Positions 40,858 to 49,663 of a stretch of 64,000 bases of DNA are shown piece after piece; the first letter of the stretch is position 1; every line of letters starts with the position of its first letter. This DNA is from an uncultured Acidobacteriota bacterium (GTDB lineage: Bacteria; Acidobacteriota; Terriglobia; Bryobacterales; UBA6623). The notes under the pieces are model-generated. The model searched no databases and was not told where the DNA came from. It saw only the letters and a program-made list of their open reading frames with translations. The position numbers and the translations under genes are program-made. The stretch is taken from positions 91,429 through 155,428 of the forward strand of contig CAWFOP010000021.1 in NCBI GenBank assembly GCA_963817465.1, in the 5' to 3' direction.

Positions 40858-43135
40858 ATGCTTCACTCGTTCTTAGTGAGACGTGTCTCGATCGTTTGCG
40901 CGGCGATGACGGCGCTGCTGTGGGGCGGCCTCGGTTTGGCTCAGGAGCCGCCGGCCGAAACGCCCACCGTGGAGCTCGCCTCGTTCGCGCCGGGCGGCAA
41001 TTCGCTGTTCGTCGACTACAGGACGGGAAGCCCGGGATGGCCGCGGGCCGCGGTGGGCGCGGACGGATCGTTGTATGTCGCGAGCACGGGCGACAGCTAC
41101 GTTCCGGTCCCTCACGGCGGCGGATACATCAGCTCCATCGCGTTGCTCAGCCGGCTGCGGGAAGGCGGCGAGGAACTCGACAACTGGGTGATGCTCGACG
41201 ATGCCAAGCCGACGGCTGTCGCGACGGGCCCGGACGGAGCGGTCTATTTCGCCGGGGAGCTGAGGCAAAGCGACGCGCTGGAGGCGACGGAAGGGGCGCT
41301 CGATGAGCCCGGCGCGAAGGGCTTTGTGATGAAGCTGTCGGCTGACGGGGAAATCTTGTTTGCGGCGAAACTGCACGGCCGGCCGCAGACCGTCGCGGCC
41401 GATGCGCAGGGCCGGATCTATCTAGCCGGGGCCGCCGCGTCGGACTTCGAGGCGACCGCGGGCGCCTACCAAACGGCGACCGGAGCCGCCGTCTGTGTTC
41501 CATACCCGGATGCGGAACCGGAGGCGTGCGACAGCGGCTTCGCCGCGCGGCTGAGCGCTGACGGCTCGCGCCTCGAGTGGGCGACGTTTCTTGGGGGCGG
41601 GGGAGACGATTGGATCGCGCGGATCGCGGTCGATGCGACGGCGATCCATTTGGCGGGGCAGACGGTTTCGGCGGACTTCCCGGTGACTGCCGGGGCGTTT
41701 CAGTCGGCGTATCGGGGAGGCAAGCAAGTTGGGTTCGCCGAGTTGGGCGATGCGTTCGTCGCGAAGATGTCGCTCGACGGACGCGAGTTGCTCTACTCGA
41801 CTTACCTGGGCGGCTCGTCCGGCGAGCAGGTGGGCGGACTGGCGGTCGACGGTTCCGGGGCCGCCTTGGTGACTGGGACGACCTACTCCGCCGACTTTCC
41901 GGCGACCGGGGGCGCTCCGCAGACCGCCTATGGAGACGGCGACGTGGGCGAGGGCGGCGCGGGCGAGGGCGGCGACGCTTTTTACTTGCTGCTCGATGCG
42001 GGAAACGAGGCTCTCGTGTCGAGCTACCGGGGCGGCGCGGCGGCGGAGTCCGGACGCGGGGCGGTTGCGCTGGACGATGCCGAAGGCGGCGGCTTCGCGG
42101 TCGATGTCGGCCGCGGGCCTGCGTTCAATCCCTGCTCGCGCAACGAATCTATTCTCCGGCTCGACAGGCGGGGGCGGCCGATCGAGCAATTCGAGATGGC
42201 GGCGGGCCTTGTCAGCGGGGACCTGATCGCGGCGAGCGGGAGCTTGGTGTTGGCGGGTCAATCCGTGACCGGATATCGACCCAATGATTTCGCGGTGACG
42301 CCGGGCGCGCCGCAACGGCAAGGCGATGTCTGGATCGCGCGGTTCCGGCTCGAGGCGGACGAGCGGCCTCTGGCGGACTGCGTCGTGAGCGCCGCCTCGT
42401 TTCTCGCGGGGCGGCAGTACGGCTACTTGTCGATCGCGGCCGTGTCGCCGGGGGAGATCGTGTCGATTTTCGGGCGCAATCTTGGGCCGGCGGAAGGGGC
42501 GGTCTTCCAGGTCGGCGATGACGGGCTGGTTCCCACGGAATTGGCGGGCACGACGCTCAGCATCGGAGGGACGGCCGCGCCGCTGCTGTATGTGGGCGAC
42601 GGGCAAGTGAACGCGGTCGTTCCCTTTGGGGTCGGGGCCGGGGAGCGAAAGCGTGCGGCTTACGACGCCGGACGGCGCGACGCGGGAGTACGGCGTCGAG
42701 GTGTTCGATAGCGTGCCGGGCGTCTTCTCGCTCGACGCGAGCGGTTCGGGGCAGGCCGCGGCGCTCAATCAGGACGGCACGTTGAACTCGCCGAGCAACC
42801 CGGCGCACAAGGGCGAAGTGATGACGTTCTACGTCACGGGATTGGGAGCCTTCGATGCGCCGGTCGAGGACGGGTCGGTGATCGGCGCGGCGCCGCCGTT
42901 CCCGCGGACGGTCGAGCCTTTTCAGATTTACGTGCAAGCGCCGTTCGGGTCGGGAGCGGCGGGGATGCCGGTCGAATACGCGGGCGCCGCGCCGGGGTTC
43001 GTCGCGGGGCTGGTGCAGATCAACGCTCGAGTTCCGGAGGCGGCGTCGACCGGAGACGCGGTGCTGGTGCGTATCGTGATGGACGCGCCGAACTTCGAAC
43101 GTTCGCAGGACGGGTTGACGATTGCGGTGGAGTGA
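40858..43135 (+). pseudogene. Secreted beta-propeller-repeat protein with TIGR03437-type (Solibacter) C-terminal domain, one frameshift
   Basis: ORF 40858-42711 ends ...LLYVGDGQVNAVVPFGVGAG and then runs out of frame. ORF 42626-43135 continues SESVRLTTPDGATREYGVEVFDSVPGVFS...YAGAAPGFVAGLVQINARVP...TIAVE. The shift lies in the G-runs at 42628-42643 (e.g. GGGG at 42640-42643). Confidence 0.7.
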
Positions 43136-43344: not shown

Positions 43345-44415
43345 TCAAGCGCGCCGCCTGGGAAGGTACACTCCTTCAAAAAAGGCACGTCGACCTTGAT
43401 GGCGACCCGCGTCCATTGGTATTAAGTTCGCCTGGATCAGAACCGAGTGGACAGTCTCATCAAGCTCCCGACGTCCCTCCGGCTGGATTTGCCGCTCCAC
43501 CCTCACCGATCGAAGGCCTTTCGTATAGACGACCCGTCCAACCATGCCGGCAATCATGATCAACAGGACCACGACGTGCCACCAACCGAACGGGAGCACA
43601 CCGATTAGCTCGAGCGCGATCACGGCTGCGGTCAGCAGCACGGCGGTCAGCTGCGGTTCTGAGAACGCATATACGAAATACCGTCCTGGATCTCCCCTCA
43701 GGAATTCAAACGAGAAACGCCCGGCGCCATAGCCCACAATGTATAAGGCAACGTTCTCACCCGGCGCATGATGTAGGATGTGCGTGGCGATTGCGAGCCC
43801 GGCTAGCATAAATAGCCACGTAGCCTCCACCAGCTGAACCGGAAAGAGCCGTACTCCTCTGACAAAATAGAAGTATCCGGTTGCGGCGTGCCTGCTTCCA
43901 TAGCGGACGCCCCATCCGCTGGGTCGACCGTGACAGCATCCCGCCATAAAACACCCCACTCTGCCAAAAGCCTGATACACGAGCAGGGCAACGACTAGAA
44001 TGTCCAAATATGCGAAGACAGGTTCTCTCAGCAGTAGAAGGAGCGCTACGGTGAAGATCAGCGCCACAATCTGAAAATGATAGACGCCCTTCTTCGCCCA
44101 GTTCAGCAGGGAGTAAGAGCGCCGTAGCAGTTTAGTGCTCTTGAACAGGGCGAACGACAACATAGCCACCAATCCCACGATTGTCGCTAGCACCGAGATG
44201 GAAACCGGGGCCGTAGAGGCGAGTGCGAAAAGAACGCCGGTACCCACGACCACCCCGGAGTAGATCCATACGAAGTAGCTATTCCAGGTTCGTCCAAAAC
44301 AGGTAATCTCGCGCTTCGCGGCCGCGTCCATGAGAAGATTAAAGAGCCGTTGAATTTGAGCTTTCATGAACGTTCTTTTGCTCCTTATCGCTATTCCTAA
44401 TCCTTCACCGATCAT
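43345..44415 (-). CDS. Lgt-family (prolipoprotein diacylglyceryl transferase-like) polytopic membrane protein
   Basis: Seven or so hydrophobic helices plus FGRVGCFMAGCCHGRP, the G-R-x-G-C-x-x-x-G-C-C-x-G variant of the Lgt signature as I recall it. It is the last gene of the RiPP island. An alternative start is ATG 44367. Confidence 0.55.
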   Translation of the reverse strand: MIGEGLGIAIRSKRTFMKAQIQRLFNLLMDAAAKREITCFGRTWNSYFVWIYSGVVVGTGVLFALASTAPVSISVLATIVGLVAMLSFALFKSTKLLRRSYSLLNWAKKGVYHFQIVALIFTVALLLLLREPVFAYLDILVVALLVYQAFGRVGCFMAGCCHGRPSGWGVRYGSRHAATGYFYFVRGVRLFPVQLVEATWLFMLAGLAIATHILHHAPGENVALYIVGYGAGRFSFEFLRGDPGRYFVYAFSEPQLTAVLLTAAVIALELIGVLPFGWWHVVVLLIMIAGMVGRVVYTKGLRSVRVERQIQPEGRRELDETVHSVLIQANLIPMDAGRHQGRRAFFEGVYLPRRRA

Positions 44416-44422
44416 GATTTAC

Positions 44423-46759
44423 TTATATCTCAAGCGCATCACGCTCCAGTAAGAGAACGGAAGGCGCTTTCCGATCGTACAGCCGGAGATAGAAGTAGCC
44501 GACGCCGCTAAGCCCAAGCATGAGCCCCGGCGCTCTCGACCCTAGAGAGCCGAAGGGCCATTGATGTCGTCGTGCTCCATGCTTGCGAATCCCCTCAGCA
44601 GCCACTTTCATGGCCACTTCGCGGCCATCGGGGAAGGCGTCCCCGAGGATCTCAGAACCAATGGTGAGAATGTCGGCATTGCCGGCAAGACCGTGGCAGA
44701 GCGAGAAATTGAATACTCCAGAGTCGAGGGTGCGCAAAGTCCATCGCAGCGTCGTCGTCAAGGCCGTGAGGGCTTCGGATCTACAGCGCTCATCGTCCAA
44801 GACACGGAAGGCATGGAGGCGCGAAAGGGCGATGCCGGCGGCTCCATGGCACCAGAAGGCCGGGAAGTCGACAGGACAGTCGATCCTTGTCGCACGCGCA
44901 GGCACGCCGCGGAAGTCCGGCCAATTACCCAACTCTTCGTTGAACCAGAGCCGCTCATACTTGAAGGCGTCTTGGGCGAGGTCGCGGTACTCGGTATTTT
45001 GAGTGGCCCGATACAATTCGATCAGGCCGTGGGCGACGCCCGCCGTACCATGTGAGAGTCCGAGCAACCCGCGTTGTTTTGGAAAGTCCGGAGACTTCCA
45101 GGAACAACATTCGCCTTTTCTTTGTGCGGCTCGAACGAGTTGGCTCCCTAGTTGAACTGCGAAGTCCGAACGGTCAAAGCCGCCCAGGATATGGCCCAAT
45201 ATCAGGAGTGCAACGATAGCGCCGCCGCTCCCGGATACCAGGTCGGCGCTAGAAACAACCGGATTCCGCCGCAGGGCATCCTCCACTAGGTGCACGGCGC
45301 GGCGGACAAGGTCCTCCTCGCCGAGCCGCCTGCCGACGTAGGCGGCCGCGACCGCTACGCCCAGGACGCCTTCATATAAGCCCAGCCCTTTGCACAACGA
45401 CGGCGAACAGGAGGCGGATATCGCCTGCCGAATTGCACCGAGAGCAGTCCGCCGCACGGCAATCTCGCCAGTGGCCGCATGCAGTTCCGCCAGAAACAAG
45501 GCAATGCCACTCGTCCCGGCATAAAAATCGGGTCCAAGCGTCTGATACGCCAACCCAGAGTCATACTGCCGCGGAAGGCTATTTTGCGGAAACCCGACAC
45601 CCATCCAGTTGCATCGCTCGTCGTGCCAAATCGCGGCCTCACAAAGAAGGCTCCCGATGTCAAATGCTGTCTCCAATAGCGTCTCTCGGCGGATCGCGGG
45701 CTGTTTGGGAATTCGACGGCCTCTCGCGGTTCCGGGGAGCCGGGAACGGGGTGCAAGGTGGAAAATGTCTTCAGAACCAGGATTGAGAAACGGCTGATCG
45801 AGCGAGACTCCCTGTTCGTCAAAATAGTCCTGCACGGCCGCTACACGCCCGCTGACCGCTGTTTCGCGCAACTCCGCAACGCGCACTAGACCTTCGGCCA
45901 GTATTTGACAGCGGTGCATGCCGAAACTAACCCCCCGGTTTGGCTGCTCCGCTATCCCGAGGCCCAGGCGGAGCCGCTTGGTAAATGCCGGCGTCTCGTT
46001 CTTTAGGTACGGCGCCACTTTGGGCTGAATCAACTCCAGCAGCGGCCGGATACGCGAGTAATCCTCTTTGGCCGTGTAGAGGACCGCAGAATCAGCCCGT
46101 ATGAATAAGTTGGGGTCGTCCACGACCTTCAGCCTGTACGGAATGCGGTCCCGGTTGAATGTTGAAGTTAGAGCCCGCATCAGGACGGTCGCCCCTTCCG
46201 CATGAAGATTCCAATACAGCCTGACGACGGGCGTGTTGCCGCCCGTTGGCAAAACCTCATCTCCCATCGCCTGGTAGAATCCCGGCGACATGAAGGGCAG
46301 CTCTTTCGGCATCGATGTCGAGACTTTATCGCCCTTGATCGGTTCAACTCGAAGAAAGGAGGTCTCACCGTCATTGACATAGAGGCGAAGTCCATTCTGT
46401 TGTATGGCGATCAAATCGCCTTTTTGGTCAATCACCTCCCAACCATGCTGCACAAATCCTTTGCCGTGGTTGGCTGCGGAAAGTGCATTGACAAACGCGC
46501 TCTTTGATGAAACCGGCGAGGGTTGCGCCTCGAAGGATTGCACCGGCACAGCAGCGCCTTTGCAGTAGAAGTGGCTATAGAGCCTCTGTTGCAGTCCGTG
46601 AATGAGGCAGGTCCGCGCGGTTTCCGGAGGTAGCGACCGTCTCAGGCGCAGCGGAAGGGTAGTCTCATGTTCCCAAAACCAAAACCAGGAGAAGGGAGGT
46701 TGAACCTGCGTGGCCTGCACGGCTGACCGCAATCGCTCAACGTGTTCACACGTGCTCAT
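44423..46759 (-). CDS. Fusion protein: N-terminal HopA1-like (putative phospho-Ser/Thr lyase) domain + C-terminal LanC-like lanthionine cyclase
   Basis: C-terminal LanC motifs: AGTSGIALFLAELH, LSHGTAGVAHGLIEL, FWCHGAAGIALSRL and SLCHGLAGNADIL (Zn ligands Cys, Cys-His). The N-terminal ~340 aa (RLYWNLHAEG...RLKVVDDPNLFIRADSAVLY...PAFTKRLRLGLGIAEQPNRGVSFGMHRCQILAEGL) matches my memory of the HopA1 effector-family pattern. No search was run. Confidence 0.7.
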   Translation of the reverse strand: MSTCEHVERLRSAVQATQVQPPFSWFWFWEHETTLPLRLRRSLPPETARTCLIHGLQQRLYSHFYCKGAAVPVQSFEAQPSPVSSKSAFVNALSAANHGKGFVQHGWEVIDQKGDLIAIQQNGLRLYVNDGETSFLRVEPIKGDKVSTSMPKELPFMSPGFYQAMGDEVLPTGGNTPVVRLYWNLHAEGATVLMRALTSTFNRDRIPYRLKVVDDPNLFIRADSAVLYTAKEDYSRIRPLLELIQPKVAPYLKNETPAFTKRLRLGLGIAEQPNRGVSFGMHRCQILAEGLVRVAELRETAVSGRVAAVQDYFDEQGVSLDQPFLNPGSEDIFHLAPRSRLPGTARGRRIPKQPAIRRETLLETAFDIGSLLCEAAIWHDERCNWMGVGFPQNSLPRQYDSGLAYQTLGPDFYAGTSGIALFLAELHAATGEIAVRRTALGAIRQAISASCSPSLCKGLGLYEGVLGVAVAAAYVGRRLGEEDLVRRAVHLVEDALRRNPVVSSADLVSGSGGAIVALLILGHILGGFDRSDFAVQLGSQLVRAAQRKGECCSWKSPDFPKQRGLLGLSHGTAGVAHGLIELYRATQNTEYRDLAQDAFKYERLWFNEELGNWPDFRGVPARATRIDCPVDFPAFWCHGAAGIALSRLHAFRVLDDERCRSEALTALTTTLRWTLRTLDSGVFNFSLCHGLAGNADILTIGSEILGDAFPDGREVAMKVAAEGIRKHGARRHQWPFGSLGSRAPGLMLGLSGVGYFYLRLYDRKAPSVLLLERDALEI

Positions 46760-47894
46760 GACGCCGTCCCGGCAACGGAAGCCCCAATAGCTGCACAGCG
46801 GCTTCCATCGGCCGGGCTAAGATGTTGGAACATAGTTGCAGTAGAGAAACGGCACGAGCGCCAACGCTAGCTTCAACCTGCGATTGCTCGTATGCGGTTT
46901 GGACGAGCCTGACGCCAGCGAAGCTGACGGCGCGCAAGAGCCAAGCCTCTTCTTCGGCAGCGGAAATTCTCATTCGACGGCGGTAGACGCTCCAGAAGGC
47001 TCGTAAAGCAGGCTGCATCCGATGCAGTGGAAACAGGGCAAGACTCAGGAATTGGTCGGGCGGGTGATCGTTGGAGATCGGGATCGATGACAGCCAAAGC
47101 GTCAAGTATTCACTGAAGACCGTGCCGACGTCCCAGCAGGGGTCGCCCAATCGCGCCAACTCCCAGTCGACGATCTTCAACTCAGCCTCCGGGCGAGGCG
47201 CCTCGGCGCATATCAGGCAGTTGTCCCACTTGAGGTCGCCATGGATGAACGTCTCATTCGTCCACTGACCTCTGCAAGCTTCGAATGACTTGCAGAGCTG
47301 ATCCGATTCCTGAATGATCTTAATCAGATCCAGACTCGCCAGGCTGGAATGTAGATAGACCCATTGATCAGGAACGGGAAGAAAAAACACCCATGGCGGC
47401 TTTTCGGGCGCGCGAAGGCTCTTGGTTACGTGGGTTCTTTCCAGCGGCGACGTGTTGTGACACTCGGCAAGCGCCGCAGCCAGCAACCGGGCGATTGTGG
47501 ACGGGAAACGGCCTCGACGCAAGCAATGATCCCGAAGAGTCGTCGATTCCAAGAAAGCTTCGATGATCAGGACTTGCTCGGCGCTATCGAACGCGTAGTA
47601 GCGAGGAAGCGCATGAAAGCCGGCTCGACCGGAATAGACAGTCGCCAGCAATTCATAGACGGCAGCCTCGTACGCAACCGTGGCGAACTTCCGGCGCCGT
47701 GGCGGACTCCCCCTGGTTTCCTGCTTGAGGAAATAATGCGGCCCTTTGCCGTTGATCACTTTAAGGTTGCCGTTGCGCCGAGACGCATTCACAACAGAGA
47801 CGCCGTCGCCAACGACCGCCGCACTCGACACCCACCCCTCGTTCAGCAGGTAGCGTACGACATCTCCGTATCCGGTCAGCACTGACCTAGGCAC
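46746..47894 (-). CDS. Stand-alone phosphotransferase (APH / protein-kinase-like fold)
   Basis: Brenner motif FIHGDLKWDNCLI and IVDWELARLGDPCWDVG. Its stop overlaps the next gene's ATG by 14 nt. Confidence 0.75.
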   Translation of the reverse strand: MPRSVLTGYGDVVRYLLNEGWVSSAAVVGDGVSVVNASRRNGNLKVINGKGPHYFLKQETRGSPPRRRKFATVAYEAAVYELLATVYSGRAGFHALPRYYAFDSAEQVLIIEAFLESTTLRDHCLRRGRFPSTIARLLAAALAECHNTSPLERTHVTKSLRAPEKPPWVFFLPVPDQWVYLHSSLASLDLIKIIQESDQLCKSFEACRGQWTNETFIHGDLKWDNCLICAEAPRPEAELKIVDWELARLGDPCWDVGTVFSEYLTLWLSSIPISNDHPPDQFLSLALFPLHRMQPALRAFWSVYRRRMRISAAEEEAWLLRAVSFAGVRLVQTAYEQSQVEASVGARAVSLLQLCSNILARPMEAAVQLLGLPLPGRRHEHV

Positions 47895-47947: not shown

Positions 47948-48448
47948 TCAACACCCGCAGCCAGTGGGAGGGTTCGGCCCGCAGAGCGGAGGCGATGAAG
48001 TTGTCGGTATGGGACAATTCGGGTCTCCGGGGAGGTCTGTCGGACAGCCGCCCCAAGACGTGCCTCCGCCAGTCCCTACCAAGGCCGAGATCAGACCGCT
48101 GACGCCAGTCGCTCTTCGCCCATGCGCGGCTTGGATGCTTCCCTTCAGGAAGTCGCCCGACACGACACCTGTGGAGATCAACTGCACCCTCAAGTCTCCA
48201 GGTATCCATACGGCAATTTGCCCGGCGGGAAAACGCTTGACACCGAGGATCCGGTCGACCGGCACCTGAAAGTACTGATTCAGATGGAGCGACGTGTACA
48301 CGCGCAGCGTTTTAGCGTCCGGCCCCCTTCCAATGAGTGTGCCAACCAGTACGTTCACATCCGGATTGTTCGGATCAGGAATTAACCGGTTGATCAGATC
48401 GTCCTCGGTCAACTCCTTCCATCCTTCAGTTGGTCCTTTTTCCGCCAC
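47948..48448 (-). CDS. Putative RiPP (lanthipeptide-type) precursor: ~129-aa Cys-free leader + 37-aa Cys/Ser/Thr/Pro-rich core
   Basis: GTG start at 48448 is 5 nt after GGAGG. The C-terminus TSWGGCPTDLPGDPNCPIPTTSSPPLCGPNPPTGCGC has 5 Cys, 8 Ser/Thr and 10 Pro. There is no Cys anywhere upstream of it. It is the first gene of the island operon. Confidence 0.7.
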   Translation of the reverse strand: MAEKGPTEGWKELTEDDLINRLIPDPNNPDVNVLVGTLIGRGPDAKTLRVYTSLHLNQYFQVPVDRILGVKRFPAGQIAVWIPGDLRVQLISTGVVSGDFLKGSIQAAHGRRATGVSGLISALVGTGGGTSWGGCPTDLPGDPNCPIPTTSSPPLCGPNPPTGCGC

Positions 48449-48747
48449 TTCGACCTCCGATCCGACTGTGAATTTAAGAGACTAAGGTACTCTAATCCGC
48501 GTCCGGCGGGTTGTCAACAGATTTTATGGCGCCCTCTAAAAAGGTCGGTGAGACGCAAGGAAGCTGGAGGAATTTGGCAGGGAATTTGGTTTTCTCAGTT
48601 GGGACTCACCGAGGGGCAAGGGTCGCCCGCCTGGCGGCGGCGGCGGGAGGGGACGTCCACTGCGCGGGTTCCCGCGTTGTATCGGGTTCGGGCGGCATGG
48701 GACAGGGCCCGTGGCGGGCGCTTTCTTGAGTGCTGCAGATTTGGGAC

Positions 48748-48785: not shown

Positions 48786-49663
48786 CTAGGCGGCGGTGAT
48801 GCGTTCGACTCTTACTTTGGCTTCGACGTCGTGCTCGCCGCCGCCCAGGATGACGCCTGTTACCGGGCTGACGTCGCTGTAGTCGCGGCCCCAGGCGACC
48901 GAGAAGTGGCCGTCGCTGGGCATGACGTTGTTGGTGGGGTCGAAGTCGACCCAGCCGAACTGCGAGCACCAGGCCGAGACCCAGGCGTGTGAAGCTTGGT
49001 CGCCGACGACCCTGGGGCCGGGCTTGAGGTAGCCGCTGACGTAGCGCGCGGGCAGGCCGATCGAGCGCATGCAGCCGATCATCAATTGGGCGAAGTCTTG
49101 GCAGACGCCGCGCTTGTTCTTGACGACCTCTTCGAGCGGCGTGGCCACGGTGGTCGCCTCGGGGTCGTACTCGAATTCGCTGATGGATGCGCTCGCCTGA
49201 GCTCGCGGGCGGCCTCGAGCAGCGGGCGGCCGGGCGTGAAGCTTTTTCGGCGTAGGCGGCCAACTGGGGCCGCAGGCGGACGTTCGGGCGACTCGAAGCA
49301 GAATTCAAAGGCGTCGAGCGCGTCGAGCGTTTCATGGGCGCGGACGACGGCTTTGACGTCTTCCCACGGCGGACTCATGGCCGCGGCCGGGGGCTCGCCG
49401 CCGGTCAGCTCGATAAGGGAGACGCCGCTGACGCTCATCTTCGAATGCGGCTCGCCGATCGTGAAGTAGTTGACGTAGTTGCCGAAGTAGTCTTGGCGCA
49501 GCGCGGTGTCGTAGGGCGCGGGTTCGACGATCAGGCGGTGGCGCACGACCTTCTGGCGATCGCCGGCGCGCGGGCGCAGGCGCACCTCGTTGTAGCAGAG
49601 GGAAACGCGCTCGGTGTAGCCGTAGATCGTCGTGTGGGTGACGCGAAACAACATGGCGATCAA
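48786..49663 (-). pseudogene. Transglutaminase-family protein gene (Bact_transglu_N + Cys-His-Asp core) broken by about 4 frameshifts within ~110 bp
   Basis: The N-terminal part MIAMLFRVTHTTIYGYTERV...DALDAFEFCFES is in one frame and the core ATPLEEVVKNKRGVCQDFAQL...SHAWVSAW...DFDPTN is in another. The joining segments SPNVRLRPQLAAYAEK / SFTPGRPLLEAAREL / SERIHQ / EFEYDPEATTV alternate between frames. Candidate indels are at GGG 49286-49288, TTTTT 49244-49248, ~49196-49201 and ~49179-49181. Confidence 0.75.

Follow-up and report, generated by a model that had tools for sequence, protein, structure and literature searches.

What is a membrane protein of the Lgt family doing at the end of a lanthipeptide operon? 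The gene that raises this question (43345..44415, minus strand; 356 amino acids if read from M1, with an alternative start, M17, at 44367) lies on contig CAWFOP010000021.1 of an uncultured Acidobacteriota bacterium, in a 64,000-nucleotide stretch that was analysed as a whole and is referred to below as the window. It is the last of four cassette genes that follow one another in the order precursor, APH kinase, HopA1-LanC fusion and Lgt-like protein. Our analysis identifies its product as a divergent Lgt-family protein that is predicted to be inverted in the membrane relative to Escherichia coli Lgt, and that may attach a lipid to the neighbouring lanthipeptide from the cytoplasmic face.

A sequence-only reading of the window had placed this open reading frame (ORF) 7 nt downstream of the LanC-fusion gene and had noticed its lowered GC content. 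Both observations hold. The HopA1-LanC gene occupies 44423..46759 (minus strand), its stop codon standing 7 nt ahead of the ATG at 44415, and the ORF shares with the rest of the cassette a GC fraction of 0.56–0.61 (over 43–49 kb) versus 0.65–0.70 on either side.

The terminal gene encodes an Lgt-family membrane protein

The protein matched the Pfam LGT profile (PF01790) at 70.5 bits against a gathering cut-off of 24.9 (E=1.7e-19), the HMMER match being limited to profile positions 55–237 of 240, and 160 homologues were found with E-values down to 1e-103. AlphaFold2, given 70 homologues, produced a confident model (mean pLDDT 88.5, pTM 0.85), and comparison of this model with the PDB by Foldseek returned E. 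coli Lgt (5AZB) as the sole significant match (E<=0.001), with E=6.1e-5, a probability of 1.00 and a TM-score, normalised to the target, of 0.51. The same structure was also the sole significant PDB match for a longer relative that was modelled (P0017). Single-sequence phmmer searching of the PDB yielded nothing relevant, and the relation to 5AZB emerged from alignment together with fold search.

The model places helices at residues 46–68, 73–97, 111–128, 133–158, 193–213, 220–236, 253–270 and 278–309, with a beta-hairpin ahead of the first transmembrane (TM) helix, as in arm-1 of Lgt. This corresponds to the Lgt fold, a seven-TM body with arm and head elements, with one TM helix extra. The Lgt-family assignment of the sequence-only reading is therefore borne out by profile match, confident model and fold match, and is far beyond chance. 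Against the NCBIfam equivalog models for Lgt the window protein scored below cut-off (TIGR00544, 36.2 vs 118.9; NF000778, 80.1 vs 334), as did the relatives P0017 and P0050 and the protein of locus L022.

The start codon is uncertain, the candidates being M1, 7 nt past the LanC stop, and M17, which has an AAGGAG sequence 13 nt ahead of it; the true start is probably one of these two. The public gene call (P0001, 328 amino acids) starts at M29; over the stretch concerned (44329-44415, minus strand) it loses part of a conserved N-terminal NxxLD motif and also cuts into a helix that AlphaFold2 models at residues 3–32.

Catalytic residues are retained around a variant signature motif

Residues were compared in a family alignment that included E. 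coli Lgt (its sequence verified to be identical to 5AZB over 291 residues), and conservation was counted over 70 relatives. The sequence-only reading had proposed to check whether the catalytic Arg, His and Tyr residues of E. coli Lgt are retained, and all of them are: R143 corresponds to R152 in the window protein (kept in 69/70 relatives), R239 to R233 (70/70), H103 to H113 (61/70), Y235 to Y229 (70/70) and Y26 to Y47, a position that is either Y or F across the relatives. Beyond these, D129 corresponds to D138 (67/70), E243 to E237 (69/70) and R246 to R240 (70/70), while the equivalents of Q199 and E202 (E197) are kept in 70/70 and 69/70 relatives, and those of G145 and G154 (the latter being G163) are invariant. 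The window protein thus carries equivalents of the full essential set (Y26, H103, R143, G154, Y235 and R239, with E243 and R246). In E. coli Lgt, R143/R239, H103, Y235, Y26, D129, E202, E243 and R246 serve to bind and activate the phospholipid donor and to act on the thiol. As judged from the alignment, such near-invariance of catalytic residues points to an enzyme and not to a scaffold.

The sequence FGRVGCFMAGCCHGRP, which the sequence-only reading had picked out, is indeed present at residues 150–165 (43921..43968, minus strand) and is a variant of the Lgt signature motif. It aligns to G142-R143-x-G145-N146-F-x-N-G150-E151-x-W153-G154-R155 of E. coli Lgt, with three substitutions: N146 has become C155, E151 has become C160 and W153 has become H162. 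All family members (70/70) have C155, C160, C161, H162 and G163, which gives an invariant GCxxxGCCHG motif. In E. coli Lgt, E151 forms a hydrogen bond with the glycerol of the phosphatidylglycerol head group, and the mutants E151A and E151Q are inactive (PMC4728403). A Cys-variant motif, GRVGCFMAGCCYG, is also carried by a canonical 262-amino-acid protein from Cyclobacteriaceae (P0120), which passes the NCBI TIGR00544 lgt cut-off (132.3 vs 118.9); because a protein with the same variant passes, the variant is compatible with the Lgt assignment. More speculatively, the Cys155/Cys160/Cys161/His162 cluster, which lies at the phosphatidylglycerol head-group position, might form a Cys3His metal site. 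In zinc-dependent thiol alkyltransferases, which offer an analogy for such a Cys3-His cluster, a metal site activates the thiolate.

The protein is predicted to be inverted in the membrane

Eight TM helices are predicted for the window protein, with both the N- and the C-terminus in the cytoplasm. The extra C-terminal helix, TM8 (approximately residues 280–296; 43528..43578, minus strand), is hydrophobic in the family-averaged profile and falls within the modelled helix 278–309. E. coli Lgt lacks it, since its sequence stops at the TM7 position in the alignment. TM8 leads into an Arg/Lys-rich tail that is predicted to be cytoplasmic (43348..43527, minus strand; 12 Lys and Arg in 60 residues), a shortened remnant of an alpha/beta domain of approximately 120 residues that forms the C-terminus of longer relatives.

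E. coli Lgt has seven TM helices, with the head domain, H103 and the cavity opening on the periplasmic side and a positively charged cytoplasmic side (PMC4728403); by hand count, it has 13 Lys and Arg in cytoplasmic and 5 in periplasmic parts. In the window protein, the segments homologous to the periplasmic parts of E. coli Lgt, namely the N-terminus and loops 2–3 (with H113), 4–5 (the 'head') and 6–7, hold 20 Lys and Arg (8+5+5+2), versus none in loops 1–2, 3–4 and 5–6, the homologues of the E. coli cytoplasmic loops, or in the new loop 7–8. The direction of this bias is the same in 70/70 relatives, whose internal loops average 9.0 versus 1.0 Lys and Arg and whose N-terminus and C-terminal region average 5.3 and about 15, respectively. 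The canonical Cys-variant protein P0120 shows the normal charge bias by hand count.

Because of the extra eighth helix and the reversed positive-charge bias, which is an extreme signal, the active site is predicted to face the cytoplasm, in other words the Lgt-like protein is predicted to be inverted with respect to E. coli Lgt, its cavity opening into the cytoplasm.

The gene belongs to one clade of a mobile cassette

Every close homologue with a readable genomic context sits in a cassette consisting of a precursor (160–170 amino acids), an APH kinase, a HopA1-LanC protein and the Lgt-like protein. We found 13 independent cassettes with unrelated flanks, their Lgt-like proteins being 36–56% identical (P0002, P0006, P0007/L001, P0003/L169, P0004/L167, P0015/L085, P0026/L086, P0019/L170, P0020/L171, P0017/L083-84, in which the contig is cut, L003, from an Anaerolineae metagenome-assembled genome (MAG), L090, and L174, which was reached independently from the precursor side). 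The flanking genes vary from case to case and include Tc toxins, LytB/polyprenyl synthases, COX/DsbB/MFS genes and Fic, among others. The four genes are thus a mobile unit.

The kinase/HopA1-LanC system itself is far wider, with at least 467 HopA1-LanC relatives confirmed among the 600 pattern matches listed, and is widespread in soil metagenomes. Among those matches, the Lgt-like gene occurs in 1/80 kinase/HopA1-LanC loci kept (only L090). About 48 of the 80 loci have more than 1.2 kb of downstream sequence, enough to judge, and in these approximately 48 Lgt-negative cassettes no substitute conserved accessory family was found downstream of LanC. The Lgt-like gene is therefore an accessory gene of one cassette clade, and the adjacency to LanC that the sequence-only reading put forward is conserved across the 13 independent cassettes without being general to the related loci. 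No transporter, protease or other accessory gene was seen within the Lgt-positive cassettes in the gene contexts read.

In neighbour-joining trees of the LanC domains and of the Lgt-like proteins, the Lgt-positive cassettes were monophyletic, with matching internal branching (L086, L167 and L168 are Lgt-positive by precomputed gene calls, their tree labels being wrong owing to crude ORF calls). The single clade and the matching trees show that the Lgt-like gene was acquired once and has since co-evolved with the cassette as its fixed fourth member, down to approximately 36% identity. As a separate observation, HopA1 and LanC form one fusion of approximately 740–860 amino acids in the Lgt-positive clade, while in many Lgt-negative cassettes the HopA1 lyase (about 320–350 amino acids) and LanC (about 410–440 amino acids) are called as separate adjacent genes (by crude ORF calls in L096, L104, L107, L108, L110, L116, L123, L130, L137, L143, L144, L147 and L150).

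The precursor offers invariant Cys residues

The precursor gene (47948..48448, minus strand) encodes 166 amino acids without a Pfam or NCBIfam match. Its N-terminus, MAEKGPTEGWKELTEDDL, is acidic and has neither a hydrophobic h-region nor a signal peptide. A conserved leader domain of approximately 110 residues (LxxLxPDPxxP...RxY...), which is common to all precursors of the system and likewise has no signal peptide, is followed by a Gly-rich linker and the core GGCPTDLPGDPNCPIPTTSSPPLCGPNPPTGCGC. The precursor ends in SSPPLCGPNPPTGCGC.

The precursor is conserved in 32 homologues, and its last 35 residues hold 5 Cys and many Ser and Thr. Over the 32 precursors, C135, C156 and C166 are invariant and C164 is nearly so; C166 is the C-terminal residue in 30/32. 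The PPLCG stretch that the sequence-only reading had singled out does contain an invariant Cys, C156, although it is not lipobox-like. That reading had also spoken of free thiols, which is an assumption, because Cys would be expected to go into the rings that LanC forms.

Precursors of the Lgt-positive clade share a specific short core, which comes in types A and B. Type A reads ...GGGTS(W/F)GGCPTDLPxDPxCPIPxTxSPPLCGPxPPTGC(R/G/S/H/N)C, and type B reads ...PFCxTDxPDPxNPxCGLTxxGCPxxPxC. The cores of Lgt-negative cassettes are very diverse and often consist of enormous Cys/Pro/Thr-rich repeats. By eye, the first Cys of type A (SWGG-C/SFGG-C) fits a loose PROSITE-style lipobox, but a lipobox was rejected as a family feature, type B cores being without one. 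The idea that loss of the C-terminal domain of the Lgt-like protein tracks core type was also rejected, as L170 combines a long-tailed Lgt-like protein with a type A core.

Two observations on precursor ends and lengths may be added. Lgt-positive precursors nearly always end in Cys, as TGC-x-C or P-x-C (47948-47960, minus strand, in the window); the C-x-C end resembles the C-terminal prenylation motif of eukaryotic Rab proteins, by analogy only. In Lgt-negative cassettes, the leader of approximately 110 residues can be fused to repeat cores (CPT, CPP, TxxC) of 200 to more than 1000 residues, far larger than usual lanthipeptide cores (L123:5083-9150 approximately, L122, L129, L130, L135 and L150).

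The parent family sits among contractile injection genes

A genome scan with the family alignment found 566 relatives, the source genome not being among the representative genomes scanned. In a neighbour-joining tree, the lanthipeptide-associated proteins are a single clade inside a broad radiation of proteins of approximately 400 amino acids, which share the eight-TM, reversed-charge architecture and add the C-terminal domain of about 120 residues. In this parent family (loci L004-L082, for example L022:978-20960, L010:3290-12717 and L065:619-11095), 65/79 loci carry eCIS_core (PF13699) proteins of extracellular contractile injection systems (eCIS), at a median distance of 1.9 kb from the Lgt-like gene. 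The count rises to 73/79 when Pfam-verified parts of contractile injection systems are included (sheath, gp19 tube, Pvc16_N, AAA ATPase, CIS_tube and Phage_base_V). Often, the gene directly upstream of the Lgt-like gene encodes a HEAT-repeat protein of approximately 200 amino acids. Our literature search found no paper joining 'contractile injection' and 'diacylglyceryl'.

The C-terminal domain of P0017 (residues 301–404 of the model) has the order alpha-beta-beta-beta-alpha-beta-beta and, by Foldseek, weakly resembles ExsC and SycH, chaperones of the type III secretion system (T3SS) (E=0.07–0.85; for ExsC, E=0.07 and probability 0.66). This modelled similarity hints that the domain of the long relatives might be a polypeptide-binding module.

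Two genomes were seen to hold more than one inverted Lgt-like member: L079:9953-10849 with L029:10031-11167 in MAG DASQZT01, and L006 with L035 in MAG JALYSR01. The L079 copy is without its N-terminal half and looks like a remnant.

A putative lipid transferase for a lanthipeptide

How might such a protein serve a lanthipeptide cassette? Canonical Lgt acts periplasmically on substrates with a signal peptide and lipobox (PMC4728403). Our preferred reading, which we hold tentatively and at a little under even confidence, is that the Lgt-like protein is a dedicated cytoplasm-facing S-lipid transferase making a membrane-anchored lipo-lanthipeptide. The enzyme would sit in the inner membrane and work from its cytoplasmic side. 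The precursor, having no signal peptide, would be phosphorylated, dehydrated and cyclised in the cytoplasm, into which the cavity would also open. Diacylglyceryl, or a related lipid, might then be taken from an inner-leaflet phospholipid and passed to the thiol of a Cys in the modified precursor. The three invariant Cys residues are the candidate acceptors, with the C-terminal Cys of the ...TGC-x-C end favoured, and the product, tethered to the membrane, would be a lipo-lanthipeptide. Cys155, Cys160, Cys161 and His162 may, as a speculation, alter the choice of donor head group or bind a thiol-activating metal. Direct lipidation of the peptide is plausible only because the active site is predicted to face the cytoplasm, and peptide lipidation is something we infer.

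Several points weigh against this reading. The precursor has neither the signal peptide nor the canonical lipobox of canonical Lgt substrates, and the lipobox-like first Cys of type A is absent from type B cores (SPF-C, GPF-C). All precursor Cys may be consumed in lanthionine rings. The product would be on the cytoplasmic leaflet, with no obvious export route. The inverted topology is itself a prediction, drawn from positive-inside analysis of the sequence. The canonical signature GRxGNFxNGExxG is not kept, N146 and E151 being replaced by Cys in 70/70 relatives, and through their loss the lipid donor or the chemistry may differ. The subclade of the window protein has lost most of the C-terminal domain, and no shared Cys motif or Cys-containing substrate was found in the eCIS_core proteins beside the parent-family genes. 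Finally, an immunity gene would be expected just as much to co-evolve with one given core.

A broader version of the preferred reading takes in the parent family as well. It supposes that a previously unrecognised, flipped branch of Lgt S-diacylglycerylates cytoplasmic polypeptides, or alkylates them with another lipid, the substrates being the lanthipeptide here, probably at its C-terminal Cys, and eCIS proteins in the parent family. The lanthipeptide would then be the first RiPP to receive its lipid from a phospholipid-dependent membrane transferase of its own, and the branch would be a bacterial counterpart of protein lipidation at the cytoplasmic face. We regard this generalisation as possible but doubtful.

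Immunity is the next function to be weighed: the Lgt-like protein could remodel a membrane lipid, such as by consuming or modifying inner-leaflet phosphatidylglycerol, or shield the membrane from the cell's own lanthipeptide. A conserved catalytic membrane enzyme that is restricted to one cassette clade and co-evolves with one specific core would suit this role, the cassette holds no other immunity gene, and the cinnamycin cluster sets a precedent in which phosphatidylethanolamine methylation serves as the lipid-modifying immunity step. Yet approximately 48 related cassettes get by with no conserved accessory gene, the parent family sits among eCIS effector genes and not beside membrane-active peptides, and the domain of the long relatives with its weak similarity to T3SS chaperones fits a reaction on lipid alone less well than one on a protein. 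On this balance, we consider an immunity role unlikely.

A docking, release or export factor, which would recruit the complex of synthetase and precursor or help the product or eCIS cargo to leave with little or no lipid transfer, appears less probable still and is in our view quite improbable. It would account for a cassette with neither transporter nor protease, for a tail or C-terminal domain that is predicted to be cytoplasmic, and for the fact that the RiPP (peptide made by the ribosome and modified after translation) and eCIS contexts are both without an obvious export route. The near-invariance of donor-binding and catalytic residues in 70 relatives, however, argues for chemistry, the Lgt-negative cassettes have no substitute gene, and we know of no transport function of the Lgt fold.

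That the gene is the organism's housekeeping prolipoprotein diacylglyceryl transferase, lying beside the lanthipeptide genes by chance, is very unlikely and was rejected on NCBIfam scores, predicted topology, mobility and phylogeny: it has the Pfam LGT match and the window's 64 kb hold no second lgt, but its equivalog scores fall below the cut-offs, its topology is predicted to be the inverse of the housekeeping arrangement (N-out/C-in, seven TM helices, a site open to the periplasm), the precursor does not have the N-terminal signal peptide and lipobox of housekeeping substrates, the GC of the cassette is lower than that of its flanks, the same four genes recur in 13 unrelated genomic contexts, and the clade is nested inside an eCIS-associated paralogue family. 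The variant signature motif also sets it apart from a housekeeping Lgt, although it plausibly functions like one.

Synthetase machinery and comparison with known systems

The protein encoded at 44423..46759 (778 amino acids) combines a HopA1-type phospho-Ser/Thr lyase with a zinc-type LanC cyclase (Pfam HopA1, 145 bits; LANC_like, 181.8 bits). In five orthologues its LanC motifs SHG (H570), WCHG (C637) and CHG (C688-H689) do not vary; we take them to hold the counterparts of the zinc ligands and catalytic His of NisC. The APH/LxmK-like kinase (46746..47894, minus strand; 382 amino acids) overlaps the start of the HopA1-LanC gene by 14 nt at its 3' end and matched Pfam APH at 42.6 bits and NCBIfam LxmK (NF038156) at 96.6 vs a cut-off of 315. 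The cassette therefore has what a lanthipeptide system needs, namely a LanC with its motifs, a putative kinase and lyase for dehydration, and an adjacent precursor with Ser, Thr and Cys. It falls into neither class IV (LanL) nor class V (LxmK), since the LxmK score and that for LanL (NF038150, 115.8 vs 650) are far below the NCBIfam cut-offs; LanM (TIGR03897) reached 243 vs 304, over the cyclase part only.

Both classes resemble the cassette in dehydrating by kinase and phospholyase. Class IV shares the zinc-type LanC but joins lyase, kinase and cyclase in one polypeptide and has a Ser/Thr-kinase fold, while class V (LxmK/X/Y) shares the APH-type kinase and HopA1-type lyase but has no LanC. 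The label 'class VI lanthipeptide' was considered and dropped, as it denotes a different, truncated LanKC type in the literature.

In their genome mining, Eyles et al. 2021 pointed to the combination of APH and HopA1-LanC as what might be a new lanthionine synthetase (PMC8153245). The HopA1-LanC and phosphotransferase clusters described there have the same core machinery (PMC8153245), and the clade with the Lgt-like gene, whose short core ends in Cys, is a subset of such clusters. The passages of that paper on 'LanC' and 'fused' contain no Lgt-like gene, the term 'Lgt' not having been searched there (PMC8153245). No characterised member with APH and HopA1-LanC was found in the searchable literature. 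The statement of the sequence-only reading that no known lanthipeptide cluster uses an Lgt homologue also stands, in that none was found in the literature searched, outside which most subscription journals lie.

With E. coli Lgt (5AZB/5AZC; PMC4728403), the window protein shares the fold, the Pfam family and the catalytic-residue equivalents. It differs in its Cys/Cys/His variant, in TM8 and the tail, in the reversed charge bias, in scoring under the equivalog cut-offs and in being encoded within a mobile RiPP cassette.

The product type proposed here, a peptide with S-diacylglyceryl-Cys, has a counterpart in the DAG-RiPPs (PNAS 2026), which are ribosomal, enzymatically macrocyclised peptides carrying this group (PMC13056109). 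Their precursors have a lipoprotein signal peptide and lipobox and are lipidated after export by the Lgt, LspA and Lnt of the host, with no Lgt in the cluster (PMC13056109). The window cassette, by contrast, has its own divergent Lgt-like gene, a precursor without signal peptide and lipobox, which places it outside the DAG-RiPPs, and a putative cytoplasmic reaction; its modifying enzymes are a kinase, a lyase and LanC rather than MNIO enzymes. Among other lipidated RiPPs, prenylated lanthipeptides and N-acylated RiPPs reportedly use soluble prenyltransferases or GNAT-type N-acyltransferases as cluster-encoded lipid transferases, and lipolanthines use polyketide synthase/fatty-acid machinery; none of these is known to use an enzyme of the Lgt family that is integral to the membrane and takes its lipid from a phospholipid.

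If the preferred reading of a dedicated S-lipid transferase is true, it would extend the DAG-RiPP concept from a hijacked housekeeping pathway to a dedicated enzyme. Ribosomal lipopeptides could then be made with four genes, their lipid coming straight from membrane phospholipid, and so compact a new route would be attractive for engineering. The predicted inversion of an otherwise essential, drug-targeted family would exemplify how topology evolution may create a new substrate compartment, and the link between the parent family and eCIS suggests a lipid-dependent step in the biology of contractile injection systems.

Surroundings of the cassette

A sigma-70-like promoter match (TTGACA-17-TAGAGT, 10/12; 48489..48517, minus strand) precedes the precursor gene by approximately 40 nt. 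Only its fit to the consensus marks it out, with 2 such sites found versus 1.6 expected by chance.

At the two edges of the low-GC island, each of the genes next to the cassette is broken up into overlapping ORFs. One is a Soli_cterm (TIGR03437) protein, divided between 40858-42711 (plus strand, profile positions 11–76) and 42626-43135 (plus strand, profile positions 72–213); Soli_cterm is a pointer to a host of Acidobacteriota type. The other is a transglutaminase, divided between 49082-49663 (minus strand, Bact_transglu_N) and 48786-49148 (minus strand, Transglut_core). These splits are frameshifts or assembly errors.

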